From contig JAHDBF010000003.1 in assembly GCA_020630525.1 (NCBI GenBank), positions 1 through 57,828 on the forward strand: a stretch of DNA of 57,828 bases. The letters run 5' to 3'. Below the pieces are notes generated by a model. The model was not told the origin of the DNA. It saw only the letters and a program-made list of their open reading frames with translations, and did no database searches. The DNA is from Saprospiraceae bacterium. GTDB taxonomy: Bacteria; Bacteroidota; Bacteroidia; Chitinophagales; Saprospiraceae. The position numbers and the translations under genes are program-made. Below, one piece after another: positions 4,001 to 51,067 of this stretch (positions within the stretch are counted from its first letter, which is position 1; every line of letters starts with the position of its first letter).

Positions 4001-5217
4001 TGGGTCAACTACAATCCCGAATTGGAGGTCAATTAACAACCGTGTCTGGAGAAGAACTAGCTCAATTTTCTGTAGAATTAAATAGTCCATCGTCTGAATT
4101 TCCACTTTTAAACATGACTGATGATCATGGTCATTATATATTTAACAATAATCCATTTGGATTAGATTATTCTATAAATGCTTCATCAAGAACCGATTGG
4201 TTAAATGGTGTATCTACCTTAGATTTAGTATTAATGCAAAAGCATATTTTATCATTAACTCCACTTACGGATCCTTATGATATGATAGCAGCAGATATCA
4301 ATAATGATGAAAACATTTCTGCCATTGATCTAGTAGAACTAAGAAAAGTTATCTTAGGTATCAATACTGAATTTCCTAACAACGATAGTTGGAGATTCCC
4401 AATTACAGAGCAGAATATGAATGCTACCAATCCTTGGCCTTTTTCCGAAACGGTTAATATCCAATCTTTTTCTTCGACAATGATGGATAACAACTTTATC
4501 GGTGTAAAAGTCGGAGATATTAACAATACTGCTGTAGTCACTTTAGATGGGAATAATACTCAATCAAGAAGTGGTAACAAATGGGCACTATATACCAATG
4601 CTGCAACGGTAAATGCAGATGGACAATACGAAATTGTAATTAAATCTGTAGCTAACCAAAAAGTAGCTGGAATGCAGTTTACCATCAATCATGCAGGAAT
4701 GAACTTGCTAGAAGTGAAGCCAGGAATATTGGATGCAAGCAATGCAAATGTTGGAATGGTTTCTAATGACAACTCAACATTCAGTTGGAATACAGGAAAA
4801 GCATTGAATATTGACAAAGACGAAGCATTAATGACATTGGTTTTTGAAAACGATGGTCAATTGAGTATCTCAAATGAGTTATTGAGTTCAGAAGCATACA
4901 TAGGAAGTGCACTTACAGAAGTAGAAGTGATATTGCAAGGAGTAAAATCTGAATTGGTAAATAAATTATACCAAAACGAACCAAATCCATTCAATAATGA
5001 AACCTCTATTGGATTTATGATTGCCGAAGAAGGCATGATAAGTCTTAAAATCATGGATGTAAGTGGAAGAGTATTGAAACAAATTAATGAATTCTATCCT
5101 GCTGGATATAATGAGTTGGTTATTTCAAAAGAAGATTTTGATACATCAGGATTAATGTATTACCAGTTTGAAAGCGGTGATTTCTCAGCTGTTAAGAAAA
5201 TGATTTTGGTTAAATAA
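1015..5217 (+). CDS. Giant secreted cysteine-rich HYR-like repeat protein A (1400 aa), T9SS cargo
   Basis: - N-terminal hydrophobic signal/anchor.
- Repeated modules with signatures such as CWG..VEDK.PP, LRTWSYFDWCTGE, FKILNHWTVIDWC, KGSHDGCGPVKLEVRR and GCGN..SC.
- C-terminal CTD LYQNEPNPFNNETSIGF...ISLKIMDVSGRVL...GLMYYQF...KKMILVK.
- Colinear paralog of 28248-32630. Confidence 0.85.
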   Translation: MVKTDFYPKRVDIPIWHVSFLVVLFLFLGITANSQSTFLACNDQIHLSLDGDCVAYITPDIVLEGEENYPAPYNDLSNYMISIETASGSGISGIEVTIPGSYNVSIIETYSGLNNSCWGTVIVEDKLPPVIVGDPCPCPVGNNNPECVITATCSDLDNMLAGHYDDVIVPQYEDCSTVDLNYVDLVSEYGPCSPIKIQRQYKLVDAGGNETTTCIYEYSVNPIDIHYDIHHPFGHIELPCGAGFSTDDVYDHYYNIKLEILLAGANSTEEVEAAELAAQQYANTYAYPTIHGKPIWNSLCNLAIVKSDLVIPACEACTDLTKVLRTWSYFDWCTGENYEHTQIIVNGDPDGPTIWHPDFSMSVDPWGCFGDFYMPYPEHLHDDCSNNLSYSVTGPYGVHIEYEEGHGYHVTGAPKGVHTFYYHGHDCCNNITTHPVQVHIVDATPPVAVAGQDIIVSLVPDANGEGIAKLYAGSVDKGSHDGCGPVKLEVRRDVGECGFEGNTTYNDDFHLDDDKDDPDNGEYVKFCCSDISENGFDSDGDGINDYSEHKVWLRVWDDGDMDGYYGTDGDNYNETWAIVRLEDKSPPQVVCPPDITIDCDTDINDFHIVGQAQAYNSCGEAEVIYEDIDDNFGCGSGTFQRKWSVVGYPHAFCIQDIYVHESYYSNIEVFFPQDTVINCADNLENERPYWDAPSCNLLAYSVERDTFLFEDGACFKILNHWTVIDWCTYQPLDPYTSGLWEHVQIVKIYDNDAPTFVDTCDEMIMKIANDYGDEDGDGIICENNATTLIKIAQDNGDCASDWIKWTVQVDLWGDWTYDYTFSSTAPYDSPFYLDPTSSGEPVRVVIPEGIPGSMINHRVVWKATDGCGNVVSCTQDLMIVDKKAPTPYCVNISSAIMDNGEVELWACDFDLGSFDNCSANADLRFTFSEVHPDEDPDYNPDTKCSSRIFNCDDIINAAQPNPVEVDVYVWDEKDNVDFCTVYLTLIDNQGVCPEVVGQLQSRIGGQLTTVSGEELAQFSVELNSPSSEFPLLNMTDDHGHYIFNNNPFGLDYSINASSRTDWLNGVSTLDLVLMQKHILSLTPLTDPYDMIAADINNDENISAIDLVELRKVILGINTEFPNNDSWRFPITEQNMNATNPWPFSETVNIQSFSSTMMDNNFIGVKVGDINNTAVVTLDGNNTQSRSGNKWALYTNAATVNADGQYEIVIKSVANQKVAGMQFTINHAGMNLLEVKPGILDASNANVGMVSNDNSTFSWNTGKALNIDKDEALMTLVFENDGQLSISNELLSSEAYIGSALTEVEVILQGVKSELVNKLYQNEPNPFNNETSIGFMIAEEGMISLKIMDVSGRVLKQINEFYPAGYNELVISKEDFDTSGLMYYQFESGDFSAVKKMILVK
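4018..5214 (+). other. C-terminal cassette of protein A: CarboxypepD_reg-like, dockerin-like, cohesin-like, T9SS CTD
   Basis: - CarboxypepD_reg-like: RIGGQLTTVSGEELAQFSVEL...DDHGHYIF.
- Dockerin-like, 4195-4400: DWLNGVSTLDLVLMQKHIL...AADINNDENISAIDLVELRKVILGI..NDSWRF.
- Cohesin-like: VAGMQFTINHAGMNLLEVKPGIL...ALMTLVFE.
- CTD from 4966. Confidence 0.6.
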
Positions 5218-7345: not shown

Positions 7346-7643
7346 ATGATTAACGCATATTAAGTACGTTATTTTTTATCTTCCAAATTTCATAGAGTCA
7401 CTAAAACTTAACCGTTTAGTATAAGTGATGTTTTGAATCAAAACAAAATCACAATAATCTCAGGAACAATTACTTCGGGTTATAGAATGAATTTTTTGAA
7501 TAAGTATACATTTTTAAAGCCTAAAATTGTCTTTTCTACTGATTGAAGAAGTGTATTTTCCTAAAAAATTACTAAACTATATATCATTCGACCAAGAATT
7601 TGTATTTTCAGATTCAAAAATTAATGATATAATAAATACACAT

Positions 7644-31200: not shown

Positions 31201-32630
31201 GAGAAGCTGATGAAGATGATTATTTGGAAGGTGATGCAGAACAATGGTTAGCAAGTTCTAACTCAAGTGCGAGAGTATTTGATTGTGATGATTATGCTCT
31301 AGCTTTGGCTAATGGAGGAATGTTACCAGTAGAGATTTATGCATGGGATGAATGTGGAAATTATGATTTCTGTGTAGTAAACTTAACATTAGTAGACAAC
31401 CAAGATATTTGCGGAATCGAAGGAAATAGAGCTATAGTTTCTGGTTCAATACTTACAGACAACGGTGCTCCAATATCAAACGTAGATGTTAATATTTCTG
31501 CGAATACTGAAGGTGGATACAATAATACAGTAACAACCAATAATATTGGTGAGTATGTCTTTACAGATGTTATTACAAATAACAGTTATTCAATTAATGG
31601 AGATAAGGATATTGATTGGATGAATGGTGTTTCTACATTGGATTTAGTATTAATTCAAAAGCATATTCTTGGATTAGAGAACTTTGATTCGCCATATAAA
31701 TTGATCGCAGCAGATGCTAACAATGATGAAAGAGTTTCTTCAATAGATTTGATTAGCCTAAGAAAATTAATTTTAGGAATTGAGACTAATATATCTGGAA
31801 ATACTTCTTGGAGATTTATGCCTTCTTCACTTTCTATGGATCCACAAAATCCTTGGAACTTTAATGAAAATATTAATATCCAAAACTTACTAGCTAATAC
31901 GCTCGAAGAAAACTTTATAGGTGTAAAAGTAGGTGATGTAAACTCAACAAATGATTTCGCCGCTGATGCAACATCTTTAAGAAGTACATCTTCTTTAGAT
32001 TTTAATATAAATGAAGTAAGAGAAAATGGAATTGTTACCCTAGAATTTAGTTCAACAAATTTCAATGATATTCATGGATTCCAATTTACTTTAGAAACTT
32101 CAAACCTTGAAATATTAAGTGTACATGCTAAAGGAATTGATCTTAATGAAAGTAATGTAGCAAACTTTAATGACAAGTTAAGTGTAAGTTGGTTTACTGA
32201 TAAAGCAAGATCATTAGATTCAGAAGTATTGTTTACAGTTACAGCAAATGAGTTGTCTACTGCAAGTACAAAACTTAACATAACTGATGCGATTACTGTT
32301 TCAGAAGCTTATGATTCTGCATATAATGTGTTAGATGTTAATTTAATAAATACTGTTGATGCAGAGTTTGCATTAGTATCTATTGAGCCGAATCCATGGA
32401 AAGAACAATCACAAATAATTTTTAATATTGATTCTGATAAAGAAGTTTCAATAACTATCTATGATACAACTGGTAAAACAGTGTATGAAAACAGTGATTT
32501 CTTCACCAAAGGATTAAACGCTTTTAACCTTAATGAAGGAGAATTACTTACTGATAAATCAGGTATTTTCTATTACACAATCTCTGATGGAACTCAGTTT
32601 TTAACAGCAAAAATGATAAAGATTAAGTAA
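28248..32630 (+). CDS. Giant secreted cysteine-rich HYR-like repeat protein B (1460 aa), T9SS cargo, paralog of A
   Basis: - Signal peptide MKRIITLTLLHMLITNMCYSQ.
- Same landmark order as A: CNDLINISLDLGCDAEITVDMV..CWGEILAEDK, LRMWTILDWCTST, SVDPWSC..PEHLHDNC, NGSHDGCGPVHLEIRR, FKVLNHWTVINWC, KKKPTPYC.
- CTD: IEPNPWKEQSQIIF..ITIYDTTGKTV..GIFYYTI. Confidence 0.85.
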   Translation: MKRIITLTLLHMLITNMCYSQCQISCNDLINISLDLGCDAEITVDMVYEGSYDPACNFFVVLDGIGGNMIDAPGNYTYRLYSPEGNFCWGEILAEDKELPAPNCTCESAFIDNGAGVLVPDPNCTFRCYDVWDLEILEADGGNNELLPDVDDNLPSDNCLVFDDPAINISIFDGANCEDKIVRRQIIYSYPNWDGTTGYVECNQEFLFQSIDVASLGSTTDGVWPNNPDEGNFDYYTPQEFVDMPCGSETTPAAIVAHFDLDTPGRPAGKDRDDYDNTPNIVEFNEGYAYAYPYVVVQGWRGNYHAKPIINNICNIYASYTDDNIDGCGVGCKGNEKVLRMWTILDWCTSTTLEFTQIISTKDIEAPTVSQGDLTYSVDPWSCARNIEFPAPEHLHDNCDSDLSYGIIAPTGISINGNTAYDVPKGIHTFYYTATDCCGNVGSSAVQVSINDLTPPTAITVEHIVLNLTNDVDADGIAKLYAQYADNGSHDGCGPVHLEIRRVEDICGFVGNTTFNNDNHSNDDINDPDGGDYVKFCCEDVDPTNIDSITGNAFGEVDVILRVWDDGDMDGTFGTAGDNYNESWLTVRVEDKLDPIVVCPPHVIMECDEDFLDYDFTGVPVVFNTCSEGVCEITDNNPRDQFQKKSTNAQPLQGVEVPAYNPSCRSGAIKRTWTCGEKTCVQWIIVNEEPNQTLVVDYPEDQEVTCSDFDAGEPTYTDQQCELIGVNMESDTFFFEDGACFKVLNHWTVINWCDYDAEDTDLNEITEPTDDGVVPGISTHTQVIKMVDDVRPELVIQDTCFAVTVDCTSENLVLKATATDNGACGSPWLKWEVEVDAWSDWDVDWTYSSFLPADNDYYINPTAGSGSFSAPTANGESVCIALPDGIPSACGLPHRVLWKVHDGCGNTTTGTSYFTVEDKKKPTPYCLNLSTALMVDGSVELWARDFNAGSFDNCTEQDYLKYTFSSVVPAQLLDDSLDPWYDADGEADEDDYLEGDAEQWLASSNSSARVFDCDDYALALANGGMLPVEIYAWDECGNYDFCVVNLTLVDNQDICGIEGNRAIVSGSILTDNGAPISNVDVNISANTEGGYNNTVTTNNIGEYVFTDVITNNSYSINGDKDIDWMNGVSTLDLVLIQKHILGLENFDSPYKLIAADANNDERVSSIDLISLRKLILGIETNISGNTSWRFMPSSLSMDPQNPWNFNENINIQNLLANTLEENFIGVKVGDVNSTNDFAADATSLRSTSSLDFNINEVRENGIVTLEFSSTNFNDIHGFQFTLETSNLEILSVHAKGIDLNESNVANFNDKLSVSWFTDKARSLDSEVLFTVTANELSTASTKLNITDAITVSEAYDSAYNVLDVNLINTVDAEFALVSIEPNPWKEQSQIIFNIDSDKEVSITIYDTTGKTVYENSDFFTKGLNAFNLNEGELLTDKSGIFYYTISDGTQFLTAKMIKIK
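31435..32627 (+). other. C-terminal cassette of protein B (CarboxypepD_reg-like, dockerin-like, cohesin-like, T9SS CTD)
   Basis: - CarboxypepD_reg-like: VSGSILTDNGAPISNVDVNI...IGEYVF.
- Dockerin-like, 31614-31822: DWMNGVSTLDLVLIQKHILG...AADANNDERVSSIDLISLRKLILGI...TSWRF.
- Cohesin-like: IHGFQFTLETSNLEILSV...VLFTVTA.
- CTD from about 32376. Confidence 0.6.
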
Positions 32631-38800: not shown

Positions 38801-41800
38801 ATTGTGATTATGCAGTAGACTTTGCTCAATTAAACGAACTTTTTGGTGAAGCAACGGCTATTGATGCTTGTAATTCGTTATTGATTGAGTTGCCATATAT
38901 AGACAATAGAGATCAATGTGGTGTTGGAGAGATTAAGAGAACTTGGCAAACTGCTGATGCTAACGGATTCGATGTATGTGAACAAGTAATCACATTTGTA
39001 AATAATAATCCTTTTGATGGAGATAATATAGTTTGGCCTGAAGATTATACTTCTTATGAAGGTTGTAATACGGATAATCTACATCCTGATAACTTGGATG
39101 CCCCTTATGATTATCCTATTGTCGATGAACAATATTGTACTTTATTAGCAACAAGTTGGTCAGACGAATTATTCTTCTTTACTTCACCAGATGACAATGC
39201 ATGTTTCAAGTTATTAAGAACTTGGGAAATTATCGATTGGTGTACTTTAGATGAAAATGATTCTGATCTTAATGAATATGATGAAGCCTCAGACGATGGC
39301 ATTACACCAGGATATTGGAGATACCAACAAACTATTAAAATCAATGATGTTGTTCCTCCAACTATTACAGGATGTGAAGATATTGAGGTATGCACATTTG
39401 AATGCGACGGCGGTGATGTAACTCTTGTTGCAGTCGGTGACGATACATGTACTCCAGATGACATTCTTAATAATTCTTATGAAATAGATTTTGATTCTGA
39501 TGGAATAGTTGATTTAACAGTTCCAGGAATTGGAAACGAAATTGTTGCAACAGGATATTATCCAGTAGGAGAGCATACAATTTTATATACTTTCGAAGAT
39601 GGATGCGGAAACATGAATTCATGTTTAAAGAGATTTACAATCAATAATTGTAAGCCCCCAACTGCAGCATGTATAGAAGGATTATCAATTGGATTAGAAC
39701 CAATGGATCTTGATGGCGATGATATTCCTGATACAGAAATGGCATGCGTATGGGCAGAAAGTTTTGATGCAAGTAGTTTACACCCTTGTGGATATGATAT
39801 AACAATTGTATTCTGTGATGACCCTGCGAATCCAGATTTAAATGATACAGAAAAATGTTTTGACTGTACAGATTGTGGTACGCAAACGGTAAACATATGT
39901 GTCATTGATGAATTTGGAAATGTAGATTTCTGTGTGACAACAATAGAAGTTCAAGACAACAATGATGTGGACTTCTGTCCAGATCCTGCAGATTGTATAA
40001 TTGCACCTAGCGCACCAGTAATTGCTGCATGCGAAACTAATTTTGATCCATCTAACATTGGAGGAATTCCTACTATTGATCCAAATTGTTTCTGCGATGA
40101 AAGTGAATTTGATATTTCATTTAATGATGTTATTCAAGATCCATCAAGCGATCCAAATTGTGTAGGTATAATAAGAACATGGACAGTGACTCCTAACTGT
40201 GGCTGTATTGGAGAACCAGCCCAATTTGTTCAAGAGATTGAAGTTATGGATTTTGTTTCTCCTGTAATTGCATGTGCACCTGATATTTTAGGAGTTTCTG
40301 CTAATGCAAATTGCGAAGCTTTTGTTAATGTTCCTGTTCCTGTAATTTTCGGAACTTGTAGTTCTAATCTGACATTAACACATAACTCAATATTCGCCAC
40401 TAATCCAACTGGCAATAACGCAAGCGGAACATATCCAATTGGAGAAACAAATGTAGTTTTTACGGTAGTTGATGCATGTGGAAATCCTAATTCATGTACT
40501 ATTATGATTGAGGTCGTGGATGATACGGCTCCAGTATGTAATGTGGATAATATATCCGTAGAATTAGATGAAAACGATATGGCTGTAGTTAGTGTCAATG
40601 ATTTTGAAAATGGCAGCTCTGATAACTGTTCTGATAATGGAGATTTAACTTTTACTTTCCAAGATGCAAGTAATACGATGACAGTTGATTGTGCTGATAT
40701 CGGTAATACAACAGTAACTATTATAGCTACTGATGAAGCAGGTAATATGACAAGCTGTACAGCTACTTTAACAGTTACAGAATTAACAGACCCTGTATGT
40801 AACTTTGTTGCAGAATTTGATGCTGCTCCAATTACAGTTGCAAATGGGAATGTAACGGTAGATGTATCTGATTTAGATTTAGGAACAAGTGATAACTGTA
40901 CTGCAGTAACTTTCAATCCTACAAGCTTTACATATAATTGTAGTGATTTAGGAGCGAATATGGAAACAATTACAGTTAGTGATCTTAACGGAAATAGTAC
41001 GCAGTGTCCTGTAATTATTAATGTAACGGACTTAGTTGCTCCGACATGTGATGTTCCTGATATTACTGTAGACGTAGCTGGTAATTCATACACTGTAACA
41101 ATAAGTGACTTTGATGTGAGTTCTGCTTCAGATGGTTGCGGATCAGAAATTATAGAATCATTTACACCTGTGACTTTTGATTGTAGCGATGTAGGAAATA
41201 CTGTATCGGCAACTGTTTTTGTTACAGATGAAAATGGAAATATGGGTCAATGTAATCCTACGATTACAATTGAAAATACAGGAATGCCAACATGTAATTT
41301 TGTTGCAGAATTTGATGCTGATCCTATTACCGCTGCCAATGGCTCAGTTACGGTTCTTGTTTCTGACTTAGACTTAGGGTCTGATGATCCTTGTAATGTA
41401 TTAACTTATGATCCGCTTTCGTTTACATTTGATTGCGATGACATTGGAGCTAACACAGAAACCATCACTGTAAGTAATGCTAGTGGGGTGAGTACGCAAT
41501 GTACGGTTATTATTAATGTTTCTGATCAAGTTGCCCCTACTTGTAGCGTACCAGATATTACTGTTGATGTTCAAGGAAATGAATATACTGTCACTATTGC
41601 AGACTTTAATGTTGACTCAGCCTCAGATGCATGTGGTACAGAAATTACAGAGTCGTTTGATCCAATAACATATGATTGTGATGACTTAGGTCAGACATTT
41701 ACAGTCGCAGTTATCGTTACAGACGAATTCGGTAATCAAGGTCAATGTAATCCTACTGTTACTATTATGGATAGTGCAATGCCGATTTGTAATATAGTGG

Positions 41801-44394
41801 ATTCAGTTGATTTATGCTTAGATGAAAATGGAGAAGCTGTACTTACAGAATCAATGGTTGACTTAGGATCAACAGCAGGATGCAGTACTACTCCAATAAT
41901 AACATTAAGTCAGAATATGTTCCTTTGTAACCCTCTTGGACCTCAAACAGTCACTGTTACTGTAGCTCTAGGAACCCAAAGTTGTGAAGAAGATATTACC
42001 GTTAATATTATCGATAAACTAGCTCCAACAATCGTATGTCCTCCAGATATGACAATTGATTGTAGTACCGATATTTCAGATTTAAGTGTATTTGGCGAAG
42101 CTGTTGCTACTGATAATTGTGTTAATGGGACTGAGATAGAAGAGATTGATGTACAGGATATTGGTGATTGTGGATTCGGAACTATTGTTAGAAGCTTTAC
42201 TGCTACTGATGCTGCGGGTAATGTATCTGCGCAATGCTCACAAACAATAACAATACAAAATTTAGATCCTTTAGTAGAGGCAGATATTACATGGCCAACA
42301 ACACCTGTGATGTCAGATTGTGTAAATGGCGGACCTACTGGAGAACCTTTAGTAAATACTGCTAGTGCTGGTTGTGCTGTTGTATCAGTAAGCTCAGTCG
42401 ATGTAGTAAACAATCCAAACAACGATTGTAGTTATTCAATCATAAGAACGTGGACAGTATCTGACTTATGTCAAGATGCAGATTTTACATTTGATCAGAC
42501 GATCAATGTTGTAGATCTTTCTGATCCAACAATACTACCTATTCCTGCTATGGATATGGATGTAGAAGCTTGTTCTACTGATATAACTTTTTCTATAAGT
42601 ATAAATGATGATTGTACATTATCAGATGATTTATTTACTGTAACATCAGATTATTTTGGAGAACATTCAATTGTAGATTCCGATACTGGTATTAATAATG
42701 GTGTGTTTACATTTTCTGGAGAATTTTGTGATGGCACACAAGTATTTAATATCATTGCGCAAGATGGATGTGGAAACTCTGTTTCTAGAGAGGTAACAGT
42801 AAATATCAATGGAAGATGTGCTAAACCTAGTTGTAAGAAAATTGGTGGTATGTTAACTCCAGAAGGTACAGATACTTTATTTGCAAATGATTTTGGAGAT
42901 TTTCCTGCAAATCAGACTTTCTGTCCAATAAGTGAATTTGACTTTTCATTTTCTACTGACATAAATGACACATTGCTATTAGTTAGCTGTGATCCGCTAA
43001 ACGGATTCCCTGCTGATACGATAATTACCAGTAGTAATATATTTGTTAATTTATATATCTGGGAAAATGGTATGCTAATCGATTCTTGTAAAAACATTGA
43101 TAGACCGGCTGCAATCGCTTATGAAAACTTTGGAGAAGTATGTGGTACACTTGCTAACGCTGGCTCTATTCAAGGACGAGTTTTGAATCCTAATAGTATT
43201 CCTGTTGATGATGTTGAGGTTGATTTAATGGGTAGTGATTTTGTTGGAATGATGACTTCTTCAGAAGGATATTATGCTTTCCCTACAATGGAGTTTGGAG
43301 GTAACTATGCAGTTGCTCCTAAGAAAGATTCTGATCCGCTTAATGGGGTTAGTACTTTAGATATCATCTTAATGCAACAACACATTCTGGGAGTCAAGAC
43401 TTTTGAGAATCCATACCAATATATTGCTGGTGATGTCAATAATTCTGGAAAAATTTCTTCTGTTGATTTGGTTCAATTGAGAAAATTAATCTTAGGTTTT
43501 TATGATGAATTCCCAGACAATACAAGTTGGAGAATGGTAGATGCAGAATATGAATTTCCGTTAAATTCTGATCCATTGGCTCAAGCATTCCCTGAAGAAT
43601 ATCATATTAATGAATTTAATCAGAATATGAATGTGAATTTTGTTGGAGTAAAAATCGGAGACATTAACAATTCTGCAATCGCAAACGCAAATCACGAAAA
43701 TGTAGAATTGAGATCTAATAGTGTACTTAAATTACAATACGAGAACGTAAACATTTCCGAAGGAGAGGTATTTGAAATTGAAATTTCAGCAGAAGTTTAT
43801 CCTGGTATTCAAGGTGCTCAGTTTGAGCTTGCAATAGATACCGATTATGCTAAGGATTTTAGTATTGAAATTTTGGACAACGAAATTTTGGGTAACGAAA
43901 ACTTTAATTTCACAGATGTAGAAAATGGAATTATTGGAACTAGCTGGCATATGAATAAGTCAGTTACCGTTAATAGAGAAATCAAATTGTTCAAAGTTAT
44001 TGCCAAAGCATTAAGAACAGGAACTATTGAAAATGCAATTAATTTAATTAATAATAATATCACTCCTGAAGCATATGCAGAAAATAACCCAATTGATTTA
44101 GCATTAATTCCAAATAATTATAGTAATGAAGATTTAATGCTGCTTTATCAAAACAACCCAAATCCTTGGTCAGAAAAAACAACAATCTCTTTCTATGTAC
44201 CAAGTGATCAAAAAGTTGAAATAAATCTGTTTGATGTTACTGGAAGTCAAATTAAACATTTTGAAATAGACGCTTCTACTGGAGGTAATCAAATCGAAAT
44301 AAGCAAAGAAGACATACCTGCTACTGGAGTCATTTATTACGAATTGGTATCCAAATCTAACAGAATTACTAAGAAAATGCTTCTCTTACGGTAA
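32875..44394 (+). CDS. Giant secreted multidomain protein C (3839 aa), T9SS cargo
   Basis: Signal peptide, then in order:
- SdrD-B-like (SGSVFLDSNLDGS.., about 32986-33175).
- Unknown ~410-aa region.
- SdrD-B-like (GNYVWEDADGDGIQD, about 34527-34700).
- 3 x DUF11.
- PKD-like region.
- The A/B-type core starting at CHGELNVSLDGDCSVEITPEMV.
- Nested C-type lectin.
- About 1050 aa of extra HYR-like modules.
- C-terminal cassette and CTD. Confidence 0.9.
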   Translation: MRKLCPLASTASRFGMLLSILMSVFSHTIYAQCPSNSVSGSVFLDSNLDGSISQSEQGLSNLMLNAYDSDGIFVSSTTTNSDGEYQFLNLDSGSYRFELSYTSNYSSSQIGENHKSVIQFSQTGNCDLHFGLKEASISCASNPDIMVTCFVRGDFNENSSYATIVGLEHDFGPASNVQVYATKQETGSIWGLSSRPSRNEVYSSAFVKQYASLTPSGHDAIFKTDLTTGTTALFTELSSLGVNTGTLSVTDPMACNYGAQVGKFGIGNIAVSQNEESLYAVNLFDNTLVKISLDNPTPATTSIYNIPNPGCTAGFPRAFALEFHNGKYYVGVTCDAMGSKNENDSSATVYEFNPASGSFTQIFQTNYIKGYWLDNPSDQFVTSHWLTDIDFTDEGNMLLAITDRIGHRFCNANTGRIDQQYPDLLVVWNDNGIWKLESNGTAGPLSGTGVGNNQGPNGGEFFGNDFYAGDPNYHSEVALGSVLALPGTGEVIASVYDPLYNTYSGGLHRYKTNNGSLVNIKELYTYNISEYFGKSTGFGEIIALCPSASPEIGNYVWEDADGDGIQDANEKPISDLPLLIFDRDCNELGSTTTDRHGNYSFNNSNVTGGILANTQYFIAIDPVICNESANVYTLNGVNYNPTRSNVDTNLGSDLISNPGVCPEHIKGFYLPVSLGSEQSVDHSYDIGLLTPNDFDLALMKTVDNADNVRLGDELTFSIEIFNQGNIAAASVEITDYITENFEFNPLNNLGWSEVDGNLKYTHSEILIPGASFTVDLKLTVVDNNIKAFANYAEISNTVDQFGSINNDNDSHADDNPLNDTGAIPNTSTDNEIYDDGTNDEDDHDVAQINVLDIALRKVASNTNPYTPLDFVTYNISIFNQGNVDILSYTVADYYPSYLDFDPALNPGWTDNGNNVLTYDYNGLLAIGEAVSIPVTFQINGFDENGEIRNIAEISEVSGGSPNTRDFDSNPDQDMNNDNLEDDMIDDMGENDEDDHDIAVITSLNIDLALIKTVDQSLVRKGEDVLFTIHVINQGEVTVKDIEIVDYLPEGLTLIDPNWSVNSVGDKAFRTINIPNGLAPGEDVNTTILFRVNQDADIKVLINFAEIYTVIDLDGKDVGNFDIDSKPDDIKSNDNGGDLGDIYDDFTRGNGEDDEDDSDPAKVYVVEYEITEPCICLNNSTTTSDGQFGETIVVTAPSAQTWNIDYVNGLFDSSSSAPPAIPTPFVTGFSGYSLSEFPLGTGYSEYTLTGIHIDGQGYDIRLVNEFGYFLQISSEGCTYADGTIQSEENPFSACINSTQTYETELAPGCIVNWTLSGGGVISGPANLESVTVDWGSVRGNYTLTANLTCPSDCDKPTFINVNLGSAIGPIACHGELNVSLDGDCSVEITPEMVLSITPDPFAGYGVMLLDPHGDPMPDNIVTAAEIGQDLMIKIIDACSGNSCWSTLTVEDKYAPVIQCDDITIDCNSLKTYEPIANDNCGTVDTIIMISEVVTPYDCHPIYVKEVTRSYIAKDSYGNTSQPCEQTIYVERFDFDAIVCPPNYLVNPEEGDLPALACGDITYNEDGTPDISITGVPTYFGWDIYPFPDYYCNVGIEYEDYIISETGCVKKYMRTWTFYEAWCGIGEYVQCTQTIEIQDLEAPTVVCDSDITISTNGESCERTVELPLPTSISDDCTTEGFVIDIAHPNGFLDNVTGNGDTFVTLSAGTHTVTYNVYDECQNLSTCTVDIVVRDETNPVAICDEFTTIGLRGDGSAEAYASVFDDGSYDDCNLYKSLVRRMDHDVESCPCEIPYFSDMHYLGEYEGHYYYLSKSKMPGYKAYWYSNAMGGHPAIIETADEDAWIRTQADSLISGDEYYIGLNDIDEEGTFVWNNNLPLNYNNWNGGSPVNIEDYVITNADGTWSVTSAAREEAYIMEVSDRCGWSEKVNFCCADLGTDHMVVYRVVDYFGNTNMCMVTTEIQDKIPPQVNCPQDLQVDCDYAVDFAQLNELFGEATAIDACNSLLIELPYIDNRDQCGVGEIKRTWQTADANGFDVCEQVITFVNNNPFDGDNIVWPEDYTSYEGCNTDNLHPDNLDAPYDYPIVDEQYCTLLATSWSDELFFFTSPDDNACFKLLRTWEIIDWCTLDENDSDLNEYDEASDDGITPGYWRYQQTIKINDVVPPTITGCEDIEVCTFECDGGDVTLVAVGDDTCTPDDILNNSYEIDFDSDGIVDLTVPGIGNEIVATGYYPVGEHTILYTFEDGCGNMNSCLKRFTINNCKPPTAACIEGLSIGLEPMDLDGDDIPDTEMACVWAESFDASSLHPCGYDITIVFCDDPANPDLNDTEKCFDCTDCGTQTVNICVIDEFGNVDFCVTTIEVQDNNDVDFCPDPADCIIAPSAPVIAACETNFDPSNIGGIPTIDPNCFCDESEFDISFNDVIQDPSSDPNCVGIIRTWTVTPNCGCIGEPAQFVQEIEVMDFVSPVIACAPDILGVSANANCEAFVNVPVPVIFGTCSSNLTLTHNSIFATNPTGNNASGTYPIGETNVVFTVVDACGNPNSCTIMIEVVDDTAPVCNVDNISVELDENDMAVVSVNDFENGSSDNCSDNGDLTFTFQDASNTMTVDCADIGNTTVTIIATDEAGNMTSCTATLTVTELTDPVCNFVAEFDAAPITVANGNVTVDVSDLDLGTSDNCTAVTFNPTSFTYNCSDLGANMETITVSDLNGNSTQCPVIINVTDLVAPTCDVPDITVDVAGNSYTVTISDFDVSSASDGCGSEIIESFTPVTFDCSDVGNTVSATVFVTDENGNMGQCNPTITIENTGMPTCNFVAEFDADPITAANGSVTVLVSDLDLGSDDPCNVLTYDPLSFTFDCDDIGANTETITVSNASGVSTQCTVIINVSDQVAPTCSVPDITVDVQGNEYTVTIADFNVDSASDACGTEITESFDPITYDCDDLGQTFTVAVIVTDEFGNQGQCNPTVTIMDSAMPICNIVDSVDLCLDENGEAVLTESMVDLGSTAGCSTTPIITLSQNMFLCNPLGPQTVTVTVALGTQSCEEDITVNIIDKLAPTIVCPPDMTIDCSTDISDLSVFGEAVATDNCVNGTEIEEIDVQDIGDCGFGTIVRSFTATDAAGNVSAQCSQTITIQNLDPLVEADITWPTTPVMSDCVNGGPTGEPLVNTASAGCAVVSVSSVDVVNNPNNDCSYSIIRTWTVSDLCQDADFTFDQTINVVDLSDPTILPIPAMDMDVEACSTDITFSISINDDCTLSDDLFTVTSDYFGEHSIVDSDTGINNGVFTFSGEFCDGTQVFNIIAQDGCGNSVSREVTVNINGRCAKPSCKKIGGMLTPEGTDTLFANDFGDFPANQTFCPISEFDFSFSTDINDTLLLVSCDPLNGFPADTIITSSNIFVNLYIWENGMLIDSCKNIDRPAAIAYENFGEVCGTLANAGSIQGRVLNPNSIPVDDVEVDLMGSDFVGMMTSSEGYYAFPTMEFGGNYAVAPKKDSDPLNGVSTLDIILMQQHILGVKTFENPYQYIAGDVNNSGKISSVDLVQLRKLILGFYDEFPDNTSWRMVDAEYEFPLNSDPLAQAFPEEYHINEFNQNMNVNFVGVKIGDINNSAIANANHENVELRSNSVLKLQYENVNISEGEVFEIEISAEVYPGIQGAQFELAIDTDYAKDFSIEILDNEILGNENFNFTDVENGIIGTSWHMNKSVTVNREIKLFKVIAKALRTGTIENAINLINNNITPEAYAENNPIDLALIPNNYSNEDLMLLYQNNPNPWSEKTTISFYVPSDQKVEINLFDVTGSQIKHFEIDASTGGNQIEISKEDIPATGVIYYELVSKSNRITKKMLLLR
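34957..36365 (+). repeat. Three DUF11 (conserved repeat domain) units, each followed by an acidic Asp-rich linker
   Basis: - Units start at 34957 (DLALMKTVDNADNVRLGDELTFSIEIFNQGN), 35428 (DIALRKVASN...YNISIFNQGN) and 35890 (DLALIKTVDQ...FTIHVINQGE).
- Linkers resemble DNDSHADDNP...DEDDHDVA. Confidence 0.7.
38260..38622 (+). other. C-type lectin-like domain nested inside an HYR-like core module of protein C
   Basis: GHYYYLSKSK...W..A......GGHPAIIETADEDAWI...YYIGLNDIDEEGTFVWNNNLPLNYNNWNGGSP...ADGTWSV matches the WIGL.D...EG.W.W.D.....Y.NW..GEP logic of CTLDs. Paralogs A, B and D lack this segment at the equivalent position. Confidence 0.75.
40792..41781 (+). repeat. Tandem duplication of a 495-nt (165-aa, two-module) unit inside gene C
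   Basis: Unit 1 is 40792-41286 (PVCNFVAEFDAAPITVANGNVTVDVSDLDLG...APTCDVPDITVDVAGNSYTVTISDF...). Unit 2 is 41287-41781 (PTCNFVAEFDADPITAANGSVTVLVSDLDLG...APTCSVPDITVDVQGNEYTVTIADF...). They have the same length and are in frame. Confidence 0.85.
43168..44391 (+). other. C-terminal cassette of protein C (CarboxypepD_reg-like, dockerin-like, cohesin-like, T9SS CTD)
   Basis: - CarboxypepD_reg-like: IQGRVLNPNSIPVDDVEVDL...EGYYAF.
- Dockerin-like, 43333-43540: DPLNGVSTLDIILMQQHILG...AGDVNNSGKISSVDLVQLRKLILGF...TSWRM.
- Cohesin-like: IQGAQFELAIDTDY...KLFKVIAKA.
- CTD from 44140: LLYQNNPNPWSEKTTISF..INLFDVTGSQI..GVIYYEL. Confidence 0.6.
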
Positions 44395-47600: not shown

Positions 47601-50600
47601 GAAGTATTTGATAATTATGAGTGTGATCCTAACTATGTTGGAAGAGTATTCCGTACTTATATAGCTATTGATGGTAACGGTGCGCAAAGTTTACCTTGTA
47701 CTGTAGAGATTTTACTTAGTAGAGTAAGTCTAAATGATATTCATTATCCGCATGACCTTACAAAACCTAATAATAAAGCACTTCATTGTGACGGTTCTGA
47801 TTGGTTGCCAGATGAAAATGGACATCCTGATCCTTGGTATGGACCAGGACTGAATGGTCCAATGTCAGGAAGTGGGTCAGGGGTGCCAACGACAAATGGC
47901 GTACCTATTTATCCAAATGTTCCAGAAATTTATTGTAATTCATACGTTGATTATGAAGACCAAGTATTCCAACATGGATGTGCTACAAAGATTCAGCGTA
48001 CATGGACAATACGTGAATGGCATTGTAGTGGTGAATTTGTAACAAGCGGAGTTCAGTTAATAGAGATTGTTGATCACAAGGGCCCTCAATTAACACCAAT
48101 TGATACTGTGTTTTCAACCACATCATGGAATTGTGTAGGTCAAGTTTATCTTCCTGCAATAGAAGCTACTGATATTTGTGGAGCAGAATTCACCTATCAA
48201 ATAGAATACCCAGATGGAGTGATGGACACAAATGGTGGCTTAGTAGAGATTCCTGTTGGAGAACATGAGGTTAAATATACAGTATATGATGAATGTTATA
48301 ACTCAAGTTACCAATACGTTACTGTAGTGGTAAAAGATCATACTGCTCCAGTTACTGTTTGTGAAATTAATACTGTAGTATCAGTTCCTCATTCTGGAAA
48401 TGTAGAAGTATGGGCGCAAACTTTTGATGATGGTAGTTGGGATGATTGTTATATACATGATTACTTAGTAAGAAGAATGGATACAACTTGTGACGAAGAT
48501 GATTTAGAATTTGACGATTCTGTCTCGTTCTGTTGCGAAGATGTTGGAAAGGAAGTGATGGTTGTTTTAAGAGTAGTAGATGGCGGTGGATATTGGAATG
48601 AATGTATGGTTGTTGTACATGTTCAAGATAAAATATCTCCAGATTTAACTTGTCCAGAAGATGTTACCATATATTGTGATGATTCATATGATTTAGATAA
48701 CGCAAACTTCTTCTTTGGCGAACCAACAATTTCTGACAATTGTTCTACTCCAGATAACATAGAGCAAGTTTTTGAAGATAATATTACGCAGTGTAATACA
48801 GGTACTATTGTACGTACATTCAATATCAGAGATGAACAACAAAATGTTATCTCAACATGTAGTCAGATTATTACAGTATTAGCAAGAGATCCATTTGGTG
48901 GAGATGATATTATTTGGCCAGAAGACTATACAGGAAACGGATGTGGTGCTAATGATCTACAGCCAGAAGACCTACCAGAAGAAAATGCCTTCCCAACATT
49001 TATTGAAGATGAATGCGACCTTGTAGGATTTAATTTTGAAGATGAGATCTTTGAATTTGTTCCTGGCGAAGATGCTTGTATTAAAATACTAAGACATTGG
49101 AGACTTATAGATTGGTGTGAAGTGATAGATACAGAATTTACTACTTATTCTCATACTCAAGTTATCAAAGTACACAATCAATTAGGTCCTGAAATCATGG
49201 GTAATTGTGATACGGTATTTGTCGAATCAAATGATCCCGATTGTTTAGGAGGATTGATCGATATTAATATGAGTGCTAGTGATGATTGTACTAATAACTT
49301 AGAATGGAATTTTGAATTTGATTACTTTAATGATGGAGTTATAGATTCTGTAGGTGTTGGTGCAATAGTGACAGGTAATTATCCAGTAGGGGAACATGAA
49401 ATTCATTGGGAGGTTCTTGACAAATGTGGAAATGTGGATTATTGTTCACAAATCGTAAATATCATAAGCAACAAAGCACCTTCCCCAGTTTGTATAAATG
49501 GACTAAGCGTTGATCTTGTCCCTATGGATTTAGACAGTGATGGAGATATAGATAATGAAATGGCATTATTATGGGCATCAGATTTTGATGCTAGTAGTGC
49601 GCATCCATGCAACAATGATTTTGTATTGAGCTTTTCTCAAGATACAACAGACATCTATCTGGAGTTGGATTGTGATGATATTGGAATAGTGATGGTAGAG
49701 CTATGGGCAACTGATGTTATTACTGGCGCTAATGCATATTGTGGTACCTTCGTAGATGTACAAGACAATAACGGTCTAGATTTCTGTACTGGCGAAAATA
49801 ACAATAGAGCAAATGTATCTGGTACTATTACTACAGAGTCTGGAGAAGCTATTAGCAATGTAACTTTAGAATTAATTGGTGCTGGTATTAATCCATTAAT
49901 TACAGGCAACGGAGGATTGTATGCGTTCCCTGATATGCCACTTGGAGGTTCTTATGCATTAAATCCTTCAAAAAATGATGATTACTTAAATGGAATTAGT
50001 ACCCTTGATTTAGTAATGATCCAAAGACATATTCTTGGTAGTGCTGAATTAGACAGTCCTTATAAAATGATCGCTGCGGATATAAATAAAAACGCTGAAA
50101 TTTCAGCAATAGATTTAATCCATTTAAGAAAATTAATCTTAGGCGTTTACAACGAGTTTCCAGATAACGATAGTTGGAGGTTTATTTCATCTGATTATGA
50201 ATTTATTGATGATGCTAATCCATTGTTAGATGTATTGCCAGAAGATTATAATATATCAAGTTTAGATTCTGATATGTTGGTAGACTTTATTGGAATAAAA
50301 GTAGGTGATGTAAATAATTCTATAGATCTAGGAATTAATAATTCTAATACATCTGCGAGAAATGCAAGAATGGAATTTACATACGAAATAATAGCCGACG
50401 CCGGTAAATCAGTAATTCCAGTCTATGCAACCAATGGTGGTGAATTTTCTGGATTGCAAATGAGCCTAAATACTATGCTTGGAACATCTAAGTTTAGAGG
50501 AGTAAAATCAGGTCAGTTAATTGTAAAGTTTGAAGATTACCACATTACAAATACTGGACAATTAAATATCAGTATTGCATTGCCAAAGGATAAAACCTTA

Positions 50601-51005
50601 AATGCTACTGACCCGATATTCTATATCGAAGCAACAGAAGAAGTACAAGGTATATTGTTAAACGAAGGAGCGCAAACTTCCCCAGAAGCATATACTAGCA
50701 ATTACGAAACGATAGATGTTAGTCTAAGTTCTTTAGATAGTCCTGAAGTTTTGATTGGAGCATTAAAGCCCAATCCATGGTCTGCTAATATGAAATTAGA
50801 TATTGAACTTGGAGAGGCACAAATGGTTGATGTTACTATTTATGACTTAACAGGTAAAGTAAGATATACTAAAAATGAAAGTATGTCGAAAGGAACGAAT
50901 ACACTTAATTTTAGCCATGATGATGTAGATGGATATGGAACATTTATCTTGAAATTATCAGGTAAAAATTGGAGTAAGGCACTTAGAATGATTCACTTAA
51001 GGTAA
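44616..51005 (+). CDS. Giant secreted cysteine-rich HYR-like repeat protein D (2129 aa), T9SS cargo
   Basis: - Hydrophobic N-terminal signal (LYSIAFSLLLVFNFYHVEAQ).
- About 870 aa of HYR-like modules homologous to the 40.3-42.0 kb part of gene C.
- Then the A/B/C-type core from CKNINVSLDENCEIEITPEMV (about 47228).
- C-terminal cassette and CTD. Confidence 0.9.
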   Translation: MSTQVSRLQIRENITLLHCITAHAKNLYSIAFSLLLVFNFYHVEAQLTCPPEIIVNYTGDATNSCTAFATVLFDDSQVLSVCPDDPLVTNNSAFDATPLPGADIDASGNYPLGSTLVTFTNQCDGMTCSVMVTVVDMENPVCIAKNINVQLDQSGMATIVPADVDDGSYDECSKPVTMEVSPAVFDCSNIGPNVVTLMVEDGAGNISTCSATVNVSDVFGPLCNLNDITVQLDATGNASITYADLDAGVIDNCGIASNSVNPTTFDCSNIGSNLVSVNIMDINGVVSNCVVNVTVQDNVLPTIACPAPMLVSCMSDISDLSTFGTAVVGDNCSATIQETVTNNLVNGCGTIEREFIAVDASGNQSAPCVQTIMVFTDPPFALAIPTIQDIACDEELPEFDEVTFVDDCTPNMDVNIVTAISPYVVDVCNGYQIEYTWTAADGCAANTTISSTFNVMPDAEAPSIECLQDITLYSGSNDCGKHHTYVPPVVASDCSTYVITNNLDASNNFEYFLPVGSTTIVWTVTDNCGNIGTCSQTITVEDVSAPNFLCPNDMVVYADDCETTLFWDKPILDNCNFNGFVGDFAPANWGAPVHQGTSGATNGAFSALTGGATLTAPSDGTAGVQDYVEVCIVAPQSGLITFDWSAIMTNGVDTNGGQLTNNETSYLLNGVETMLAQGTTNSAEGSLSYFSVNGGDVICLRAYTTNDLYYTLFSITNFEYFPGASLVLTSPVVPDSFEGAGDGELVGPGTYTILCEVSDGFGNKDWCTFDIVVLDPEPVNITCYQDITLNILDPNSCDTTAYFLPATVTDNCPLVGAPIQSSGPISDSAPGAGDGTPLSPGTYAVEYEYFDGVDRYTCYTNITVTAYEDMALACKNINVSLDENCEIEITPEMVLAGDEIELGCLLNYEITISDPHGELPTNILTDSLLGYDLTYMICVAGGGNCCWGNLVLEDKFPPKIICPDAPIVTTCNGLDLVEIPVGDDNCSYSEVIVVDEVFDNYECDPNYVGRVFRTYIAIDGNGAQSLPCTVEILLSRVSLNDIHYPHDLTKPNNKALHCDGSDWLPDENGHPDPWYGPGLNGPMSGSGSGVPTTNGVPIYPNVPEIYCNSYVDYEDQVFQHGCATKIQRTWTIREWHCSGEFVTSGVQLIEIVDHKGPQLTPIDTVFSTTSWNCVGQVYLPAIEATDICGAEFTYQIEYPDGVMDTNGGLVEIPVGEHEVKYTVYDECYNSSYQYVTVVVKDHTAPVTVCEINTVVSVPHSGNVEVWAQTFDDGSWDDCYIHDYLVRRMDTTCDEDDLEFDDSVSFCCEDVGKEVMVVLRVVDGGGYWNECMVVVHVQDKISPDLTCPEDVTIYCDDSYDLDNANFFFGEPTISDNCSTPDNIEQVFEDNITQCNTGTIVRTFNIRDEQQNVISTCSQIITVLARDPFGGDDIIWPEDYTGNGCGANDLQPEDLPEENAFPTFIEDECDLVGFNFEDEIFEFVPGEDACIKILRHWRLIDWCEVIDTEFTTYSHTQVIKVHNQLGPEIMGNCDTVFVESNDPDCLGGLIDINMSASDDCTNNLEWNFEFDYFNDGVIDSVGVGAIVTGNYPVGEHEIHWEVLDKCGNVDYCSQIVNIISNKAPSPVCINGLSVDLVPMDLDSDGDIDNEMALLWASDFDASSAHPCNNDFVLSFSQDTTDIYLELDCDDIGIVMVELWATDVITGANAYCGTFVDVQDNNGLDFCTGENNNRANVSGTITTESGEAISNVTLELIGAGINPLITGNGGLYAFPDMPLGGSYALNPSKNDDYLNGISTLDLVMIQRHILGSAELDSPYKMIAADINKNAEISAIDLIHLRKLILGVYNEFPDNDSWRFISSDYEFIDDANPLLDVLPEDYNISSLDSDMLVDFIGIKVGDVNNSIDLGINNSNTSARNARMEFTYEIIADAGKSVIPVYATNGGEFSGLQMSLNTMLGTSKFRGVKSGQLIVKFEDYHITNTGQLNISIALPKDKTLNATDPIFYIEATEEVQGILLNEGAQTSPEAYTSNYETIDVSLSSLDSPEVLIGALKPNPWSANMKLDIELGEAQMVDVTIYDLTGKVRYTKNESMSKGTNTLNFSHDDVDGYGTFILKLSGKNWSKALRMIHLR
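46350..46785 (+). other. Cys-poor ~145-aa insert of unknown fold nested inside an HYR-like module of protein D
   Basis: The module opens CPNDMVVYADDCETTLFWDKPILDNC and closes GPGTYTILCEVSDGFGNKDWCTFDIVVLD. Between them lies FVGDFAPANWGAP...ITFDWSAIMTNG...LSYFSVNGGDVICLRAY...FSITNFEYF. The next module (CYQDITLN...) has no such insert. Confidence 0.5.
49815..51002 (+). other. C-terminal cassette of protein D (CarboxypepD_reg-like, dockerin-like, cohesin-like, T9SS CTD)
   Basis: - CarboxypepD_reg-like: VSGTITTESGEAISNVTLEL...GGLYAF.
- Dockerin-like, 49977-50184: DDYLNGISTLDLVMIQRHILG...AADINKNAEISAIDLIHLRKLILGV...DSWRF.
- Cohesin-like: FSGLQMSLNTMLG...PIFYIEAT.
- CTD from 50763: LKPNPWSANMKLDI..VTIYDLTGKV..GTFILKL. 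Confidence 0.6.
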
Positions 51006-51067
51006 TCATTTATACAGCTTACGTTCTTTATAAATACGGAGATTGGTTTATTAACAAATACTTGAGT

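Follow-up and report, generated by a model that had tools for sequence, protein, structure and literature searches.

We analysed a stretch of 57,828 nucleotides from the genome of a Saprospiraceae bacterium (contig JAHDBF010000003.1 of assembly GCA_020630525.1; hereafter the window), which contains five giant genes coding for proteins A–E. A homologous cassette of about 400 amino acids, with the same order of domains, forms the C-terminal end of proteins A, B, C and D. The cassette is composed of three parts, a beta-sandwich with an inserted dockerin, a connector of fixed length and a cohesin, placed before the C-terminal sorting domain (CTD) of the type IX secretion system (T9SS). Covariation between the two modules is moderate evidence for a dockerin–cohesin interface of the canonical type, and we give an even chance to the reading in which the two modules of one chain dock on each other and form a rigid pedestal next to the outer-membrane anchor. 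All conclusions are computational.

A cassette shared by four proteins

Pairwise blastp comparisons of the four cassettes give E-values of 1e-51 to 1e-68 over nearly the full length, with an overall pairwise identity of 31–37%. The initial annotation described an identical cassette in the four proteins; the common order and the homology are borne out, and the word identical is wrong. The cassette starts that it gave for A, C and D translate as open frames, while position 31435, given for B, is out of frame, the frame starting at 31437. Hidden Markov models (HMMs) of the cassette family, run on all six-frame open reading frames (ORFs) of the window, recovered exactly four dockerin, four cohesin and four C-terminal sandwich segments. 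Judged from these alignments, the shared cassette is real and far beyond chance. In the same scan, protein E was found without dockerin or cohesin and was matched in its CTD only, as the initial annotation had stated.

The mean pairwise identity differs between the modules. Among A–D it is 60% for the dockerin, 44% for the later sandwich strands, 28% for the first sandwich strands, 22% for the cohesin and 28% for the sorting domain. The corresponding values among 124 cassettes of the family are 61, 46, 31, 25 and 37%.

The AlphaFold2 monomer model of the C cassette (408 residues, to which all residue numbers below refer) has a predicted local distance difference test (pLDDT) score of 95.2 and a predicted TM-score (pTM) of 0.84, with no low-confidence linker. 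It contains, in this order, four strands (residues 2–53), three helices (63–109), three strands (121–162), the cohesin (186–315) and the sorting domain. The pLDDT falls to 80–89 in the stretch 171–179, the variable part of the connector. The connector of C extends to about residue 185, R182 included, and thus into the segment listed as the cohesin module in table 1.

A dockerin inserted in a beta-sandwich

A canonical dockerin consists of two tandem F-hand repeats, in which a 12-residue Ca2+ loop (D or N at positions 1, 3, 5, 9 and 12) is followed by a helix. The EF-hand-like segment of the cassette, for which a dockerin had been proposed, is matched by the Pfam family PF00404 (Dockerin_1) above the cut-off of 22.9 bits in all four isolated cassettes (scores in table 1); in the full-length proteins the scores of C and D, 22.4 and 21.6 bits, are just below it. 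A family profile made from the 124 cassettes also matches the dockerins of solved structures (4uyp_B, E = 5e-7). The three helices of the C model span residues 63–74, 82–88 and 98–109. The calcium ligands of repeat 2 are canonical: D89 (100%), N91 (94%), S/D/N93, S/T97 and D100 (100%). Residues D65, D89 and D100 are invariant. The loop of repeat 1 is non-canonical, in agreement with the degeneracy noticed at the outset, yet strongly conserved as (N/D)54-D-D-x-L-N59-G60-V-S-T-L-D65, in which position 5 is hydrophobic. By its sequence the segment is a true type I-like dockerin, predicted to bind Ca2+.

The part of the cassette before the dockerin is matched by the family PF13620 (CarboxypepD_reg) only at profile positions 2–53 of 82 and below threshold, with 16.6–25.9 bits against 32.3 (C, 19.4 bits, positions 2–52). 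In the AlphaFold2 model of the C cassette, strands 2–6, 17–21, 35–37 and 47–53 precede the dockerin, and strands 121–125, 145–147 and 158–162 follow it. Direct coupling analysis (DCA) was carried out on 523 cassette units (effective number 472) with our own mean-field script, using gap filtering and the zero-sum gauge. It couples the N-terminal half of the sandwich to the C-terminal half (13–160, z 11.5; 41–156; 51–142), the dockerin to the later sandwich strands (57–115, 69–166 and 104–115, each with z of at least 10) and the first strands to the middle helix of the dockerin (8–81, z 7.6).

Because strands flank the dockerin and the couplings link both halves and the dockerin, the dockerin is an insertion that interrupts a single transthyretin-like beta-sandwich and packs against it. 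The initial annotation had placed a sandwich and a dockerin one after the other as consecutive domains; the motifs SWRF and F.GVKIGDVN, which stand behind the dockerin, are in fact the later strands of the interrupted sandwich. This packing explains why these two motifs are as conserved as the dockerin itself. Residues S120, W121, K162, G164 and D165 of the C-terminal half are invariant. The motifs quoted for the cassette at first, SWR(F/M), F.G(V/I)K(V/I)GD(I/V)N and G.Q(F/M).(L/I), are all present; in the cohesin of D the last of them reads GLQMSL, without the QF given at first. The sandwich with its inserted dockerin resembles the dyads of X module and dockerin found in type II and type III systems.

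A nine-stranded cohesin

The Pfam family PF00963 (Cohesin) has no match at E<=1 in any of the four cassettes of the window, so the identity of the following domain was established from the family profile, from precomputed matches in homologues and from fold comparison. A homologue search with the C cassette returned 374 relatives, the best being 44% identical and the named ones mostly from Saprospiraceae. Of the 120 homologues listed, 22 have a precomputed Pfam match to Cohesin along with those to Dockerin_1 and the T9SS tail. The profile of 124 cassettes matches the cohesins of the solved structures 3l8q_A (E = 2e-6), 5g5d (4e-3) and 2ozn (1e-2).

The segment after the dockerin was expected to fold as a nine-stranded jelly roll if it were a cohesin, and it does so. 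Residues 175–322 of the C cassette, modelled alone with AlphaFold2, form nine strands with a pLDDT of 92.5. All 50 best Foldseek matches of the isolated domain in the Protein Data Bank (PDB) are cohesins, of types I, II and III and of the NagJ type. The best is the type I cohesin of OlpC (4dh2), with a TM-score of 0.65–0.66 and a root-mean-square deviation of 2.8–3.1 Å. When the whole four-domain model is submitted to Foldseek, pairs of generic immunoglobulin-like (Ig-like) domains dominate, and cohesins are top-ranked with poor TM-scores. The domain of about 140 residues after the connector is a genuine nine-stranded cohesin.

The sorting domain

The tail family PF18962 scores 22–27.9 bits in the four cassettes, against a cut-off of 27. 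TIGR04183 (cut-off 23), scanned for A, B and D, gives 35.5 bits for B, 27.8 for D and 19.9 for A. The family HMM of the CTD scores 66–104 bits in all four cassettes, and the CTD ends at the stop codon. All five proteins, A–E, start with a hydrophobic N-terminal leader, read by eye from the translations. With this leader and a CTD at the extreme C-terminus, A–D are, as far as these signals tell, T9SS type A cargo. Such cargo loses its sorting domain and becomes attached to the cell surface by the C-terminus so created, as is expected here. The NCBIfam family NF052323 (T9SS-dependent M6-like inactivated metalloprotease) matches the cohesin and CTD of protein A with E = 2e-5, and this unrelated T9SS cargo also appears to carry a cohesin-like domain before its tail.

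Covariation of dockerin and cohesin

Five pairs of positions stand out between dockerin and cohesin in the DCA: 73–182 (score 1.54), 105–259 (1.35), 110–297 (1.26), 63–259 (1.02) and 74–301 (0.97). Two controls were used. Shuffling of the cohesin block among the sequences gave maxima of 0.71–0.91 in four runs, and comparison of the first sandwich strands with the cohesin, in which the phylogeny is kept, gave a maximum of 0.92. All five pairs exceed both. The sets that covary above the controls comprise dockerin positions 63, 74, 102, 105 and 110 and cohesin positions 259, 260, 297 and 301. With 321 sequences the dockerin–cohesin signal was barely above the shuffles, and two pairs between the C-terminal sandwich half and the cohesin were equally good; with 523 sequences the dockerin–cohesin pairs became stronger and the other two vanished.

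The signal at S259 is more robust than that of the pairs 110–297 and 73–182. Where S259 is lost, T63 tends to be lost with it (odds ratio 123, p = 9e-10), and so do R105 (odds ratio 20, p = 5e-9) and L74 (odds ratio 9.8). Changes at Q70, or at D89 and N91, which are calcium ligands, show no such link. Double changes of R105 and S259 are found in 7–11 sequence clusters.

Within each dockerin helix, the couplings to the cohesin come from one face and those to the sandwich from the opposite face. The positions coupled to the cohesin are 10 and 21 in repeat 1 and 14, 17 and 22 in repeat 2, and their counterparts lie on strands 5 and 8 of the cohesin. All of these dockerin positions except 21 are classical cohesin contacts in type I complexes, position 21 being the symmetry equivalent of such a contact. 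Strands 5 and 8 belong to the classical binding sheet of cohesins (8-3-6-5), to which the helices of a cognate dockerin bind directly, with high affinity and in a Ca2+-dependent manner. Residues T63, R105, K106, S259, E301 and Y303, all at surface positions, are very strongly conserved. The interface residues are identical in A–D and therefore hold no paralogue-specific code. From this pattern of sequence changes, the dockerin and the cohesin of the cassette appear to be cognate partners.

Distribution of the cassette

At E<=1e-30 the family profile matches 11,388 clusters (50% identity). The proteins with the 150 best matches are 755–7182 residues long, and in nearly all of them the best match spans the whole profile and reaches the C-terminus. 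There are at least 578 loci in species-representative genomes, and nearly all of those listed come from Saprospiraceae, Lewinellaceae, Haliscomenobacter, Phaeodactylibacter, Portibacter and Aureispira; one of the carriers, Lewinella cohaerens DSM 23179 (loci L045 and L064), is a cultured strain. At least 517 further loci are found in metagenomes, many of them marine. Two carriers are labelled otherwise: a contig attributed to a gammaproteobacterial metagenome-assembled genome of Halioglobus sp. (L010, JBLHWH010000007.1) and a protein labelled Cyclobacteriaceae (P0425). Contigs labelled outside Saprospiraceae are probably due to mis-binning, horizontal transfer being the alternative.

The cassette ends at the stop codon, or a few codons from it, in 80 of 80 genome loci. 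The region upstream of the cassette was examined in 75 cases, and every one is homologous to the N-terminal parts of A–D, many with E<1e-100; therefore the cassette belongs to one family of giant HYR/Ig-like repeat proteins. The possibility that it is a generic stalk found on unrelated cargo, which the initial annotation had considered, is thereby ruled out. To the extent that homology can tell, the cassette is confined to a single, very large family of giant T9SS-secreted proteins from Saprospiraceae. Individual members are named in NCBI only as dockerin-, cohesin- or T9SS-domain-containing proteins, and a full-text literature search found no paper linking cohesins or dockerins to Saprospiraceae adhesins or describing the cassette.

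Among 155 full-length proteins scanned (150 family representatives and the window proteins A–E), 126 have dockerin, cohesin and CTD in the ratio 1:1:1. Some relatives depart from this layout. Two to five orphan cohesins, alternating with HYR-like domains and not with enzymes, are present beside the C-terminal cassette in the N-terminal part of P0127, P0157, P0149, P0166 and P0241; P0127 has five of them (residues 21–1070). Tandem units, or dockerin units without a following cohesin, are seen in P0125, which has four dockerins and one cohesin, in P0129, which has a dockerin and no cohesin, and in P0214, which too has dockerin units not followed by a cohesin. On domain order, the N-terminal arrays have a scaffoldin-like layout with no identified dockerin partner.

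Docking within one chain or between chains

In the reading that we prefer, and which seems to us evenly poised, the cassette would be the conserved cell-proximal base of giant adhesin-like T9SS proteins. Dockerin helices 1 and 3 would sit on the face of cohesin strands 5 and 8 of the same polypeptide, and the self-docked cassette would form a rigid pedestal, probably stabilized by Ca2+. After removal of the CTD and surface attachment, the cohesin would lie nearest to the outer membrane, and the cohesin end would carry the long HYR/Ig-like stalk. The analysis shows the identity and order of the domains, the insertion of the dockerin, the covariation and the distribution; binding in cis, calcium dependence and the role as a pedestal are what we infer.

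Binding in cis is favoured because the linkers are short and of fixed length, the linker itself is coupled to the dockerin, the monomer model is compact with a high pTM, and the modules occur in the 1:1:1 ratio given above. The offset between sandwich and cohesin is 7–11 residues (5–95% range between HMM model ends, 602 units), and that between cohesin and CTD is 1–8 residues (same range, about 600 units). The strongest of the five couplings, with a DCA score of 1.54, joins linker residue 182 to residue 73 in dockerin helix 1. The fixed-length linkers, the compact and confident model and this coupling also argue for binding within the chain rather than for the cross-linking of A–D into a lattice that was proposed in the initial annotation.

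Several observations weigh against the self-docked pedestal. The dockerin–cohesin contact in the AlphaFold2 model is deduced from pTM and DCA and was not seen as such, and DCA is blind to the difference between contacts in cis and in trans. The pairs 110–297 and 73–182 are confined to a few clades and reflect few independent events. The calcium loop of repeat 1 is non-canonical. The cohesin is the least conserved module (22–25%) and the dockerin the most conserved (60%), an asymmetry not usual in obligate pairs that bind tightly. When the dockerin is cut out in silico, the match to CarboxypepD_reg (PF13620) still does not become a full one; therefore the sandwich is at best a divergent relative of that family. 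Finally, the relatives with orphan cohesin arrays or cohesin-less dockerin units give a hint of trans binding.

The dockerin may instead bind the cohesin of another molecule, of the same protein or of a paralogue, giving domain-swapped dimers, rings or chains at the cell surface, and in some relatives proteins may be recruited onto the N-terminal cohesin arrays. We regard this reading, the main rival, as rather unlikely. The covariation fits contacts in trans equally well, the identical interface residues of A–D would allow cross-pairing, and the orphan arrays and orphan dockerins of relatives such as P0127, P0125 and P0129 show a scaffoldin-like variable stoichiometry that leaves room for trans binding. 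There is also a precedent of self-recognition in Ruminococcus bromii Amy4 (PMC4611034), and Aureispira GhpA, a giant T9SS substrate of the same class, forms heptamers; the paper on this grappling hook mentions no cohesin or dockerin, and GhpA serves as an analogy only (bioRxiv 10.1101/2024.01.29.577165). Against such assembly stand the short connector, whose length is conserved whereas scaffoldins have flexible linkers, a monomer model that is compact and keeps its confidence from one domain to the next, the coupling of linker residue 182 to dockerin helix 1, and the lack of additional cohesins or dockerins in A–D.

A further reading, which we consider unlikely, is a latch competent for swapping, in which exchange from cis to trans would produce defined Ca2+-dependent oligomers, or a surface meshwork on the outer membrane, made of A–D and of the relatives with orphan cohesin arrays or orphan dockerins.

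It is more doubtful still that the dockerin binds a separate conserved partner, such as a component of the surface or outer membrane or a T9SS attachment factor, common to all members of the family, the cohesin being no more than an Ig-like spacer before the CTD. Such a partner would fit the high conservation of the dockerin and the drift of the cohesin, and also the cohesin-like domain directly before the CTD of the unrelated NF052323 cargo; T9SS cargo, for example that of Porphyromonas gingivalis, often has an Ig-like domain in this place. The covariation of dockerin contact positions with cohesin strands 5 and 8 would then be unexpected, the sandwich already covers one of the faces of the dockerin, and no candidate partner was identified in the window. 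That the dockerin and cohesin folds are stable structural spacers in the stalk, with no binding function at all, is very improbable: the repeat 1 calcium loop is indeed degenerate and modules resembling cohesins and dockerins, outside cellulosomes and with no known partner, are common according to Peer et al. 2009 (as cited in PMC9012536), but the six surface-position residues named above are very strongly conserved, conserved residues of this kind covary, and repeat 2 retains the canonical calcium ligands.

The giant genes and their surroundings

The window is an AT-rich piece of bacterial chromosome (G+C about 34%) with housekeeping genes such as tig-clpP-clpX, ruvB, relA/spoT, fur, a class V aminotransferase gene and a MeaB/methylmalonyl-CoA mutase fragment. 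The giant genes and the modules of their products are listed in table 1. Genes B, C, D and E form a tandem cluster, E lying immediately downstream of the genes with the cassette and on their strand.

Table 1. Giant genes of the window, their C-terminal cassettes and other mapped features (positions in the window; aa, amino acids).
Feature	Position	Strand	Details and evidence
Protein A ORF	1015-5217	+	1400 aa
Protein B ORF	28248-32630	+	1460 aa
Protein C ORF	32875-44394	+	3839 aa
Protein D ORF	44616-51005	+	2129 aa
Protein E ORF	51062-55117	+	1351 aa
Protein A cassette	4021..5214	+	dockerin 4189-4368, cohesin 4561-4953, CTD; family HMM; Dockerin_1 28.7 bits
Protein B cassette	31437..32627	+	dockerin 31608-31787, cohesin 31974-32363, CTD; family HMM; Dockerin_1 28.1 bits
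Protein D cassette	49815..51002	+	dockerin 49974-50153, cohesin 50343-50744, CTD; family HMM; Dockerin_1 24.5 bits
C cassette aa 1-53, N-terminal half of sandwich	43168..43326	+	four strands, CarboxypepD_reg-like; PF13620 sub-threshold, AlphaFold2, DCA
C cassette aa 54-113, type I-like dockerin inserted in sandwich	43327..43506	+	PF00404 24.9 bits, family profile, AlphaFold2
C cassette aa 114-170, C-terminal half of sandwich	43507..43677	+	SWR(F/M) and F.GVKIGD(V/I)N motifs; AlphaFold2, DCA
C cassette aa 171-179, variable part of short connector from sandwich to cohesin	43678..43704	+	offsets, DCA, pLDDT
C cassette aa 180-320, cohesin module	43705..44127	+	nine-stranded jelly roll; AlphaFold2, Foldseek, family profile
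C cassette aa 325-408, predicted T9SS type A CTD	44140..44391	+	PF18962 25.7 bits vs cut-off 27; stop codon 44392-44394
Cysteine-rich core of A	1015-4017	+	A aa 35-992
Cysteine-rich core of B	28248-31436	+	B aa 209-1063
Cysteine-rich core of C	36985-39969	+	C aa 1370-2365
Cysteine-rich core of D	47226-49775	+	D aa 870-1720
C-type lectin domain (PF00059) of C	38347-38601	+	C aa 1825-1909; 24.3 bits vs cut-off 22.6

Upstream of the cassette, A–D have in common a cysteine-rich core of about 850 residues, with the motifs SLDGDC..ITP.MVL, CWG...VEDK.PP, DGSHDGCGP and LRVWDDGDMDG. Pfam gives only weak HYR_4C and HYR matches on it. The core is kept in all 75 related loci examined.

The Pfam domains found in A–D are HYR, HYR_4C, SdrD_B, DUF11, DUF7507 and Lectin_C. 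The same scan found no glycoside hydrolase (GH), carbohydrate esterase (CE), polysaccharide lyase (PL) or carbohydrate-binding module (CBM) in A–D, in line with the earlier suggestion that the cohesin–dockerin principle is used here outside polysaccharide degradation. Protein C additionally has SdrD_B, DUF11 and DUF7507, as repeats near its N-terminus, and the C-type lectin domain; this set suggests that the distal part of C may bind carbohydrates or cell surfaces. Protein E carries SprB repeats, four SdrD B-like domains and a strong T9SS tail (45.9 bits), and is by its predicted domains a different kind of T9SS surface protein from A–D.

Some other genes of the window code for predicted envelope, secreted or metal-related proteins. 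Directly downstream of gene A lies a gene for a predicted outer-membrane beta-barrel protein of 271 residues (DUF6089 / OMP_b-brl; 5400-6215), and near gene A a gene for a protein of the CAP/cysteine-rich secretory family (172 residues; 282-800). A smaller T9SS cargo of 524 residues, with a Por_Secre_tail match of 28.2 bits and no further recognised domain, is encoded at 7527-9101. One ORF (20317-21579) combines an ABC-3 metal-transporter permease domain with a C-terminal dimerisation domain of iron-dependent repressors (Fe_dep_repr_C), an unusual fusion, and adjoins a Fur-family gene (21576-22046) in divergent orientation.

Significance of the cassette

If the self-docked reading is true, the cassette represents a very large undescribed branch of cohesins and dockerins that has nothing to do with polysaccharide degradation, in which both partners are joined in a rigid unit that forms the base of giant adhesins secreted by the T9SS. 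A dockerin held in a beta-sandwich and docked on the adjacent cohesin would then be a natural single-chain equivalent of the complexes between a cohesin and an X module–dockerin dyad (XDoc). Cohesin–dockerin pairs are among the most mechanostable protein complexes, and the cassette would then be of interest to mechanobiology, to the presentation of T9SS cargo at the cell surface and to protein engineering.

Saprospiraceae include epiphytic and predatory filamentous species and are important in activated sludge and on marine particles. Binding in trans, if true, would show how these bacteria build surface fibres. A swap-competent latch, if it exists, would mean that an assembly code in the style of the cellulosome has been reused for surface appendages in aerobic aquatic Bacteroidota, a consequence comparable to the heptameric grappling hooks of Aureispira.

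Comparison with known systems

A cellulosome is built on a scaffoldin whose several cohesins, usually accompanied by a CBM, capture carbohydrate-active enzymes by the dockerins that these bear. Proteins A–D have one cohesin and one dockerin each and none of the GH, CE, PL or CBM domains, and are neither cellulosomal nor scaffoldin proteins in this sense.

The closest structural parallels are the cellulosomal type II and III complexes of cohesin and XDoc, for example those of the Clostridium thermocellum CipA XDocII with SdbA, OlpB and ScaC (2b59, 5g5d, 5k39). Their cohesins have the same fold and are among the top Foldseek matches, with TM-scores of 0.5–0.6. In both cases an adjacent Ig-like module buttresses the dockerin, both dockerin helices appear to contact the cohesin, and the pair is placed where a large extracellular assembly is anchored to the cell surface. 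The dockerin of the cassette is, however, situated inside the beta-sandwich, whereas in XDoc it is appended after the X module. The partners of the cassette are moreover on one chain, about 10–17 residues apart, their anchor is a T9SS CTD in a Gram-negative member of Bacteroidota and not a surface-layer homology (SLH) domain or a sortase signal, and neither enzymes nor CBMs are present.

In the amylosome of Ruminococcus bromii, the dockerin of Amy4 binds the cohesin of Amy4 itself, and the protein is predicted to multimerise (PMC4611034). As in A–D, both modules are present in one protein and are used outside cellulose degradation, and the recognition of a protein's own cohesin by its dockerin, known from Amy4, is what we favour for the cassette. 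Amy4 is a GH13 enzyme whose modules are apart and are predicted to act in trans, whereas those of the cassette are adjacent parts of a rigid unit on non-enzymatic, adhesin-like proteins, with cis binding favoured.

The cassette can also be compared with T9SS type A cargo such as RgpB of Porphyromonas gingivalis and the NF052323 proteins, in which a beta-sandwich stands directly before the CTD, as it does here. The weak match of NF052323 to the cohesin and CTD of protein A belongs to the same likeness. The cassette differs in that the domain before its CTD is a bona fide cohesin and that the dockerin, its probable partner, stands in front of this cohesin.

Cohesins and dockerins outside cellulosomes are known from every domain of life, according to Peer et al. 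2009 as cited in PMC9012536, and proteins of anaerobic methanotrophic (ANME) archaea combine one dockerin with up to five cohesins (PMC9012536). The modules of Archaeoglobus fulgidus, of ANME archaea and of NagJ belong to the same domain families as those of the cassette and likewise function outside the degradation of plant cell walls. The cohesin of Clostridium perfringens NagJ (2jh2, 2ozn) matches that of the cassette in fold (TM-score 0.66) and in profile (E = 1e-2), and the multi-cohesin relatives within the cassette family provide a further, scaffoldin-like parallel. The cassette differs from these modules by its fixed order of sandwich with inserted dockerin, cohesin and T9SS CTD, by its restriction to one lineage (Saprospiraceae and relatives) and by its very high number of copies. 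It is a structural and architectural variant of the noncellulosomal cohesin–dockerin systems, abundant and as yet unstudied.

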